57,935 bases of DNA from a virus. Lineage: Duplodnaviria; Caudoviricetes. The position numbers were made by a program, and so were the translations under genes. Positions 19,027 through 19,169 of this stretch are shown here, in pieces. The stretch covers positions 1 through 57,935 of the IMG/VR virus record IMGVR_UViG_3300025575_000016; one strand, 5' to 3'. Below the pieces are notes generated by a model that worked only from the letters and a program-made list of their open reading frames with translations, did not search any database and was not told where the DNA came from. The first letter of the stretch is position 1; every line of letters begins with the position of its first letter.

Positions 19027-19169
19027 GTTGAATATTAACATGAGATGTATTTAAATGATATAGTTTTTGTATCATTGTATTGATCTGCATAAGTTGAATA
19101 TTAACATGAGATGTATTTAAATGTTACAGTTCTAGCAAAATTCCAACTTAGTGCATAGTTGATTTAAAT
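19027..19169 (+). CRISPR. Mini-array 1: repeat GTTGAATATTAACATGAGATGTATTTAAAT (clostridial type I-B-like); 2 full repeats, 1 internally deleted, 2 spacers
   Basis: Identical 30-mers at 19027-19056 and 19093-19122; spacers of 36 and 35 bp; remnant GTTGATTTAAAT at 19158-19169. Confidence 0.9.

Follow-up and report, generated by a model that had tools for sequence, protein, structure and literature searches.

The stretch of virus DNA considered here, IMG/VR record IMGVR_UViG_3300025575_000016 (Caudoviricetes; 57,935 bp, ~48% complete by CheckV; its full length is called the window), contains at 19027–19169 a short CRISPR array, array 1, for which an original prediction made from the letters alone had proposed a host-like clostridial type I-B repeat. 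Array 1 belongs to the first of two modules, each made up of a scaffold resembling trans-activating CRISPR RNA (tracr) and a mini-array, that lie upstream of a single gene for a 446-aa protein assigned to Cas12f. The order from 5′ to 3′ is scaffold 1, array 1, scaffold 2, array 2 and cas12f, and this placement in a two-module Cas12f cassette rules out array 1 as a free-standing captured array. Array 1 is proposed to be the guide array of one of these two tracr-plus-array modules for a phage-borne type V-F Cas12f, with spacers loaded in trans by the type I-B Cas1-Cas2(-Cas4) of the host, a reading that is held with somewhat more confidence than doubt. The strongest new point is the occurrence of an I-B leader end together with an I-B repeat inside a phage Cas12f module. 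The features of module 1 and the nuclease gene are as follows.

18856–18993, plus strand: scaffold 1, tracr-like body (alignment of 17 scaffolds, RNAalifold and minimum free energy (MFE) fold)
18994–19001, plus strand: module 1 anti-repeat (MFE fold; same alignment position as the anti-repeats of relatives)
19007–19026, plus strand: I-B-type leader end, a 20-mer directly before the first repeat (weight matrix)
19027–19056, plus strand: array 1 repeat 1, I-B type, 30 nt (direct reading, repeat search and Rfam)
19057–19092, plus strand: array 1 spacer 1, 36 nt (direct reading)
19093–19122, plus strand: array 1 repeat 2, 30 nt, identical to repeat 1 (direct reading, repeat search and Rfam)
19123–19157, plus strand: array 1 spacer 2, 35 nt (direct reading)
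19158–19169, plus strand: array 1 truncated terminal repeat, 12 nt (direct reading)
19515–20855, plus strand: cas12f, 446 aa (Pfam, NCBIfam and PDB matches, homologue alignment)

Identity of the array 1 repeat

The 30-bp repeat and the 35–36-bp spacers of the original prediction were confirmed by direct reading, which gave two identical repeats (19027–19056 and 19093–19122) and spacers of 36 and 35 nt. The third repeat is a 12-nt stump (19158–19169) that sits exactly at the position where a third repeat is due and consists of the first 5 and the last 7 bases of the repeat. The predicted 18-bp internal deletion, degenerate trailer and plus-strand orientation therefore all hold, and the stump is without the target of the anti-repeat.

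A search of 17000–22000 against Rfam (E ≤ 1) returned two matches, both to CRISPR-DR3 (RF01316) and located on the two full repeats of array 1, each scoring 50.2 bits, above the gathering threshold of 41 (E 1.7e-4); they fall on the minus strand, since Rfam keeps this model in the reverse of the orientation used here. In addition, the repeat lies at most one base away from Clostridium repeats that adjoin type I-B cas genes, so that the predicted close likeness to clostridial type I-B repeats was borne out and class 1 matches exist. Clustering of the open reading frames (ORFs) flanking the host repeats and profile scanning of the cluster representatives identified Cas6, Cas7, Cas3, Cas1b, Cas8b/Csh1, Cas4 and Cas5b, with Cas1b beside host repeats at 387 bits against a cut-off of 304. 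A degenerate pattern of the repeat, with 26 of the 30 positions fixed and 4 free, was found in 13 viral stretches and at least 120 genome stretches. Among the matches listed, Clostridium accounts for nearly all of the 80 genome-stretch titles, the exact array 1 30-mer has one copy each in two stretches (L011 and L072), and a variant differing at position 7 alone has 78 copies in 16 loci. At least one I-B cas gene was detected by tblastn in 34 of the 120 genome stretches listed and in 1 of the 13 viral stretches, and no Cas12f homologue was found in these 133 repeat-bearing stretches. Of 1355 host spacers between such repeats, 1329 are 34–37 nt long and the commonest length is 36 nt, which agrees with the claim that the window spacers (36 and 35 nt) are typical of type I-B. 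Based on these matches, the array 1 repeat is assigned as a genuine clostridial I-B-type repeat, and among the Cas12f-linked repeats examined, window repeat 1 alone fits the strict host repeat pattern.

Leader end and spacer acquisition

In 69 host I-B arrays, the 20 nt directly 5′ of the first repeat are strongly conserved. With a weight matrix built from the 51 distinct sequences of these arrays, the window segment 19007–19026 scores 10.9 bits, a value reached by 8 of the 115,830 window 20-mers (both strands, itself included). Related Cas12f loci score 11–20 bits in 11 of 29 cases (best of nine offsets each), the host leave-one-out median is 18.9, and the four relatives with another repeat type (L138, L139, L148 and L152) score −2 to −6. 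The corresponding end in module 2 (19317–19336) is weakly alike, at 2.2 bits, a score reached by 740 of the 115,830 20-mers. Host leaders bear a TATAAT-type element farther upstream, and in the Cas12f modules that place is occupied by the scaffold; in module 1, the scaffold is followed by the anti-repeat, then by the final 20 nt of an I-B leader and then by the I-B repeat.

No cas1, cas2, cas4 or cas6 was found in the 57.9-kb window, which covers about half of the phage. Because array 1 has both an I-B repeat and an I-B leader end and the window has no Cas1, Cas2 or Cas4, insertion of its spacers by a host I-B Cas1-Cas2(-Cas4) is most likely. Several relatives illustrate how such arrays may change. 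One related locus (L151) differs from another (L145) in having precisely one additional repeat-spacer unit of 66 nt at the leader junction, apart from which ~530 aligned columns show a single further difference; a third (L147) has the same leader end and repeat as this pair with other spacers. Spacer 1 of a further relative (L144) agrees in 34 of 35 positions with the tape-measure gene of phiSM101, a Clostridium perfringens phage, and its protospacer is preceded by 5′-TCA; this is a single data point, and TCA is listed among the clostridial I-B protospacer adjacent motifs (PAMs) in the available text of PMC4860712. Of the uses that the original prediction suggested for array 1, spacer loading by host I-B Cas1-Cas2 would thus be the best supported, considering the leader end, the lack of cas1, cas2, cas4 and cas6 in the window, the one-unit gain and the TCA flank. 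Spacers also differ among the relatives compared, which are without module 1, rather than being invariant.

Genomes that contain both kinds of array allow the Cas12f-linked repeat to be set beside that of the resident I-B system. In one genome (G227), a full I-B operon adjoins the host array, whose leader end agrees with the Cas12f-linked one at 18 of 20 positions and whose repeat agrees at 26 of 30 (hand count), and both repeats have an unusual 5′ segment in common. In another (G219), the host and Cas12f-linked repeats agree at 26 of 29 positions within a different I-B repeat subfamily. In a third (G230), the two leader ends resemble each other, and the loci are ~50 kb apart on the same contig. 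The genome's own cas1-linked repeat is the best match to the Cas12f-linked repeat in 4 of the 7 genomes with both array kinds.

Scaffolds and anti-repeats

Both window arrays are preceded by a structured stretch of ~150–170 nt. The features of module 2 are listed below.

19180–19336, plus strand: scaffold 2 with its anti-repeat at 19301–19322, 12 + 7 bp (RNAduplex and fold)
19337–19497, plus strand: array 2, repeat family D2
19337–19366, 19402–19431 and 19468–19497, plus strand: array 2 repeats, with 100, 93 and 80% identity to the reference copy
19367–19401 and 19432–19467, plus strand: array 2 spacers, between the family D2 repeats

An end-to-end alignment was obtained for seventeen scaffolds, taken from the window, from relatives in the viral and genome sets and from a Clostridium baratii plasmid. 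RNAalifold recovered only two of the five helices, comprising 12 pairs, 7 of which show changes on both sides. Scaffold 1 is composed of a first hairpin (~18856–18873), a long-range stem, a third hairpin and a stem between 18957–18962 and 18988–18993. When scaffold 1 with repeat 1 and scaffold 2 with repeat 2 were folded singly, the same five-element architecture was obtained, and both folds end in an anti-repeat:repeat duplex with 5 nt free before the spacer; as read from these two folds, the stem before the anti-repeat is maintained by wholly different letters in the two modules.

The module 1 anti-repeat, which was assigned by positional homology and not by whole-scaffold RNAduplex, is predicted to form 8 bp (7 Watson-Crick pairs and 1 G-U pair) with repeat positions 18–25. 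The module 2 duplex has an energy of −15.7 kcal/mol, reached by 15 of 300 shuffles, and a fold z-score of −3.05. Across the relatives, anti-repeats covary with repeats, for example in L146, L149, L164, L165, L167 and L181. The predicted capture of a host repeat with evolution of a matching tracr thus holds in part: the tracr-like scaffold carries a putative anti-repeat, but the I-B likeness is found across the clade and is not peculiar to this cassette.

In one of the relatives with another repeat type (L148, 2080–2142), the anti-repeat lies 9 nt before a 5′-shortened first repeat, so that the scaffold would fold with the first guide into a natural single-guide hairpin.

The Cas12f nuclease and its relatives

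The 446-aa ORF is identified as Cas12f by its profile and structure matches and is probably an active nuclease. It matches Pfam Cas12f1-like_TNB (5.7e-20), exceeds the cut-off of the NCBIfam TnpB family model (152 bits against 100) and scores 118 bits with the NCBIfam Cas12f2 model, below the cut-off of 450. Full-length PDB matches at E ~1e-84 were obtained with 8j12, 8j1j, 7wju and 8dzj, chains that have generic names only in the search and that we take to be AsCas12f; chains named Cas12f or Cas12f1 by their depositors also match (9nzq at 2e-67, 9i8y at 2e-58, 7l48 and 7c7l). In an alignment of 25 homologues, D226, E334 and D415, which are read as putative RuvC acidic residues, and the zinc-ribbon cysteines C383, C386, C405 and C408 are invariant.

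Homologues of the protein at E ≤ 1e-20 number 548, many of them named as Clostridium, and the closest relatives (P0002–P0006) are 77–84% identical. Of 26 viral loci, 20 have an array adjoining the gene, although one of these arrays is a low-complexity repeat of doubtful status next to a match of 22% identity; two of the six loci that lack an array are cut by contig ends. Among 384 scored Clostridiaceae genomes, 14 carry a Cas12f homologue; a co-oriented array is present in eight of the nine genomic loci with a near-full-length match (L164–L170 and L172), the ninth (L171) being cut by a contig end. Many repeats of this clade are 29–30 nt long and I-B-like over their 3′ two-thirds, and the nearest proteins of the viral set (64–69% identity) use another repeat of 31–32 nt with an anti-repeat of 25–28 bp. 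The I-B match of array 1 would represent a clade-wide habit, renewed against the resident I-B subfamily, and not a one-off capture. The Clostridium baratii plasmid pNPD11_1 (L203, record 114800–117000) encodes a 445-aa Cas12f homologue of 50% identity, annotated only as TnpB family protein, which is flanked on both sides by near-identical scaffold and array modules with I-B-like repeats; the window is thus not the only case of two modules placed around a single gene.

Three further loci of the clade were noted. In a viral contig (L004/L152; gene region 2919–4298 of L004), a 64%-identical Cas12f gene is broken into two ORFs (242 and 154 aa) beside a scaffold and three-repeat array that look intact, and the split gene may be a pseudogene or an assembly error. 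At L141:2040–2480, a 58%-identical Cas12f follows a seven-repeat array with a 32-nt G+C-rich repeat ending in ATTGAAAC-like letters, which we presume to be of type I-C or another class 1 type rather than I-B; if the repeat is class 1, this would be another Cas12f array with class 1 style repeats. In contig C5 of G227 (1936–6228 and 59666–62756; L169 and L178), an identical six-spacer Cas12f-linked array occurs twice, ~58 kb apart, the second copy beside a Cas12f match with 14 stops, which may reflect duplication of an element in which the gene has since decayed, or else a repeat produced by the assembly.

Proposed mechanism and alternative explanations

A possible mechanism was proposed for the cassette. 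A single transcript from ~18782 would probably cover both modules in turn and then cas12f. The anti-repeat at 18994–19001 could then pair with the 3′ part of each repeat, leaving 5 nt free before the spacer, and Cas12f may carry scaffold, repeat tail and spacer and cut matching DNA. Judging from the relatives, the targets are most likely rival phages or plasmids. New spacers would most likely enter at the leader-repeat junction through host I-B Cas1-Cas2(-Cas4) acting in trans.

Several observations weigh against this proposal. In 3 of the 7 genomes with both array kinds, the own host repeat is among the worst matches to the Cas12f-linked one, and a summed-identity permutation gave a weak result (748 of 5040). 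I-B Cas1b exceeds the cut-off in 7 of the 14 Cas12f-bearing genomes and in 134 of 368 others, which is no clear enrichment. The spacer turnover described above was seen in arrays of relatives, none of which carries module 1, and adaptation genes could lie in the half of the phage outside the window. The leader-end likeness could be inherited baggage instead of a signal in use. The module 1 anti-repeat comprises 8 bp only, the energy of its duplex was reached by 221 of 300 shuffled repeats (RNAduplex), and its fold z-score is only −1.55. Scaffold 1 is only 54% identical to scaffold 2, and binding of both by one protein is an assumption. A search of the four window spacers against phages and plasmids yielded no protospacer and weak or array-to-array matches only; the first 26 nt of spacer 1 have no exact match in viral contigs, and among the arrays of relatives no protospacer was found for L151, L149, L169 and L172, L144 alone giving one. 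Of 401 Clostridiaceae genomes searched with the 758-aa protein encoded at 28780–31056, 383 were scored, and none of these yielded a prophage relative.

The proposal can be extended to a dual-socket array, in which host I-B Cas1-Cas2-Cas4 installs the spacers and the transcript feeds both the phage Cas12f, by way of tracr, and host Cascade, by way of Cas6. As the anti-repeat is directed at a part of the repeat that host arrays also have, host I-B CRISPR RNAs (crRNAs) could be borrowed by the phage Cas12f as well. More widely, Cas12f cassettes on mobile elements would re-tune leader end, repeat and anti-repeat to the resident adaptation system, here I-B. The extension is tentative and rather unlikely; if true, a phage-borne class 2 nuclease would be plugged into a class 1 system.

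Array 1 might instead work mainly or also through the host class 1 machinery, with Cas6 cutting the transcript and Cascade-Cas3 using spacer 1 (perhaps also spacer 2) against rivals, in which case scaffold 1 would be secondary or a relic. The repeat, its whole 3′ end included, is within one base of host repeats. Of the 13 viral stretches with the same repeat family, 12 carry arrays with neither I-B cas genes nor a Cas12f homologue in the stretch, so that orphan I-B arrays are common on phage-like DNA, and the use of host Cas proteins has been proposed for phage arrays with host-like repeats (available text of PMC7162821). However, scaffold 1 has retained every helix, with compensatory changes, and its anti-repeat lies at the conserved place, which points to use by Cas12f; the scaffold also stands where an I-B leader would have its promoter part. 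Moreover, the truncated third repeat would deprive spacer 2 of its normal downstream Cas6 site. Use through the host class 1 machinery is thus considered unlikely.

It is rather improbable that module 1 is a decaying, non-functional leftover of recombination, that is, a tracr-array unit that lost its own nuclease gene. Such decay would fit the presence of two spacers only and a truncated last repeat, but degenerate last repeats are normal for mini-arrays and the two full repeats are identical. The anti-repeat is the shortest among those examined (8 bp compared with 9–28 bp) and the fold z-score is weak, yet the scaffold helices are intact with compensatory changes and the leader-end motif is kept. 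Scaffold 1 resembles the scaffolds of Cas12f proteins that are just 46–51% identical, which would suit an orphaned unit, as would the failure to find a second cas12f remnant in the window; against this, the two-module layout around one gene also occurs in the Clostridium baratii plasmid.

Finally, a counter-defence decoy, in which host Cas6 or Cascade is titrated by the RNA of array 1 or the phage tracr pairs with host I-B precursor crRNA to block or hijack it, would agree with the location of the anti-repeat target in the repeat part common to host I-B repeats and with the silencing of host CRISPR by phage repeat-spacer RNAs that the available text of PMC7162821 mentions as a possibility, but it is very improbable, because the spacers turn over and at least one spacer of a relative targets a phage, for which immunity is the better fit, and because two repeats would make a small sponge.

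Origin of the two modules

Returning to the proposed guide array for Cas12f, the two modules appear to differ in descent. Scaffold 1 is 60–61% identical to the scaffolds of L145, L147 and L149, whose Cas12f proteins are 46–51% identical to that of the window. Since scaffold 1 is nearest to the scaffolds of distant Cas12f lineages, scaffold, leader end and repeat probably arrived together, and module 1 would have come as a unit from another Cas12f lineage, with modest margins. Scaffold 2 is nearest to the scaffolds of L165, L173 and L164 (65–67%), whose protein matches are 62–71% identical, that of L173 spanning residues 253–435 only; module 2 may thus be the cassette lineage's own, again with modest margins. 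A recent tandem duplication of modules 1 and 2 was rejected, given the 54% identity between the scaffolds and the greater nearness of each to other lineages.

The repeats of array 2 have no match in the Rfam search described above. A metagenomic 1687-nt contig (L188) that begins inside an array of the array 2 type encodes an 82%-identical protein and has the same repeat 3′ half with different spacers. By hand count, 18 of 30 positions of the array 2 repeat and 20 of 30 of the L188 version agree with a common I-B variant, the 5′ half of the L188 repeat being more I-B-like than that of the window. The suggestion that array 2 is a second independent capture was therefore rejected on the missing Rfam match and the L188 comparison, and array 2 would better fit a diverged member of the same lineage.

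Relation to known systems

The cassette resembles type V-F1 (former V-U3) Cas12f systems in its 446-aa full-length effector, its adjacent co-oriented mini-array, its tracr-like scaffold with an anti-repeat, which is clear in module 2 and putative in module 1, and the lack of adaptation genes in the window. According to the available text of PMC10691335, the Cas12f branch has arrays and no Cas1, Cas2 or Cas4, and arrays may arise by insertion beside an existing array; phage-encoded V-F variants are described in the available text of PMC7162821. In contrast to the arrays treated in the former, which are mostly downstream in the text available, the scaffolds and arrays of the window lie upstream of cas12f. 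Unlike V-F1 systems, the window also has two heterologous scaffold-array modules for one gene, its repeat and the last 20 nt of its leader are of the class 1 I-B type, and the scaffold is fused to the array by way of the leader end.

Clostridial I-B arrays, such as those of C. pasteurianum (PMC4860712, available text), likewise have a 30-nt CRISPR-DR3 repeat, 35–36-nt spacers, the leader-end 20-mer and a degenerate last repeat. The window differs from them in having no I-B cas genes (cas1, cas2, cas4 and cas6 were sought), two spacers only and a Cas12f scaffold in place of the promoter-bearing part of the leader. Orphan phage or prophage arrays with host-like repeats are described in the available parts of PMC7162821 and PMC4173771; array 1 is similarly phage-borne and compact, with a host-like repeat and no adaptation genes, but a Cas12f gene and a matching scaffold are located within 500 nt of it.

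Adaptation in trans has been discussed for class 2 effectors that lack Cas1-2 and are thought to depend on the integrase of another system, and the present case is alike in this respect. The idea of V-F/I-B adaptation in trans itself is already contained in a 2024 preprint (bioRxiv 10.1101/2024.04.09.587696, available text), which reports co-occurrence of V-F1 and I-B with common PAMs in 14 of 26 pairs. A second preprint (bioRxiv 10.1101/2024.10.25.620265, available text) describes Listeria experiments in which II-C Cas1-2 serves VI-A adaptation in trans. As far as their available text goes, these papers rest on co-occurrence and PAMs or on Listeria experiments, whereas the evidence here is an I-B leader end and repeat in phage Cas12f cassettes. 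No description of an I-B leader end inside Cas12f cassettes was found in the literature searched, which excluded supplements and subscription papers.

For the many Cas12f (V-F) arrays without Cas1-Cas2, this locus and its relatives offer a concrete, testable answer to how spacers may be gained; the segment 19007–19056 and its mutants would be defined substrates for integration assays. The arrangement also bears on the origin of type V arrays from pre-existing class 1 arrays and on phages that rely on the immunity genes of their host even as they equip themselves against rival elements. Practical interest for tool builders lies in natural Cas12f scaffolds compatible with different repeats and in a natural fusion of scaffold to array.

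Phage context of the cassette

The best of 1355 host spacers against the window, from a Clostridium guangxiense I-B array (L089, twice), matches 30498–30524 at 26 of 27 positions; this match covers the aligned part of a 37-nt spacer and lies inside the ORF at 28780–31056 on the minus strand. It hints that relatives of the phage meet Clostridium hosts with the same repeat family. A large serine recombinase gene at 22818–24338, with Resolvase, Recombinase and zinc-ribbon domains, suggests that the phage is temperate or integrative.

Ahead of the whole cassette lies a promoter-like site.

18753–18781, plus strand: promoter-like site, TTGACA / 17 nt / TACAAT, 11 of 12 hexamer positions

This is the best of 17 such sites, a number not above that in shuffled sequences (mean 17.8), and it represents one copy of the recurring D1 motif described below. 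Two peat-metagenome DNA runs contain the window stretch, and one of them may be its origin. Their contigs break at the repeats and are uninformative on spacer variants; contig depth is ~9 across the cassette and ~14–36 in most flank bins. A second strain, with a depth of ~10.6, is present in the flanks, and its contigs diverge from the window at ~18774–18778 and 20855. These points of departure coincide with copies of a promoter-like, TTGACA-type motif (repeat family D1) that occurs three times, at 18742–18775, 20842–20875 and 21410–21443, so that the cassette looks like variable, swappable cargo in a fixed slot between motif copies. The motif copies flank the cassette on both sides and also precede the next gene block.

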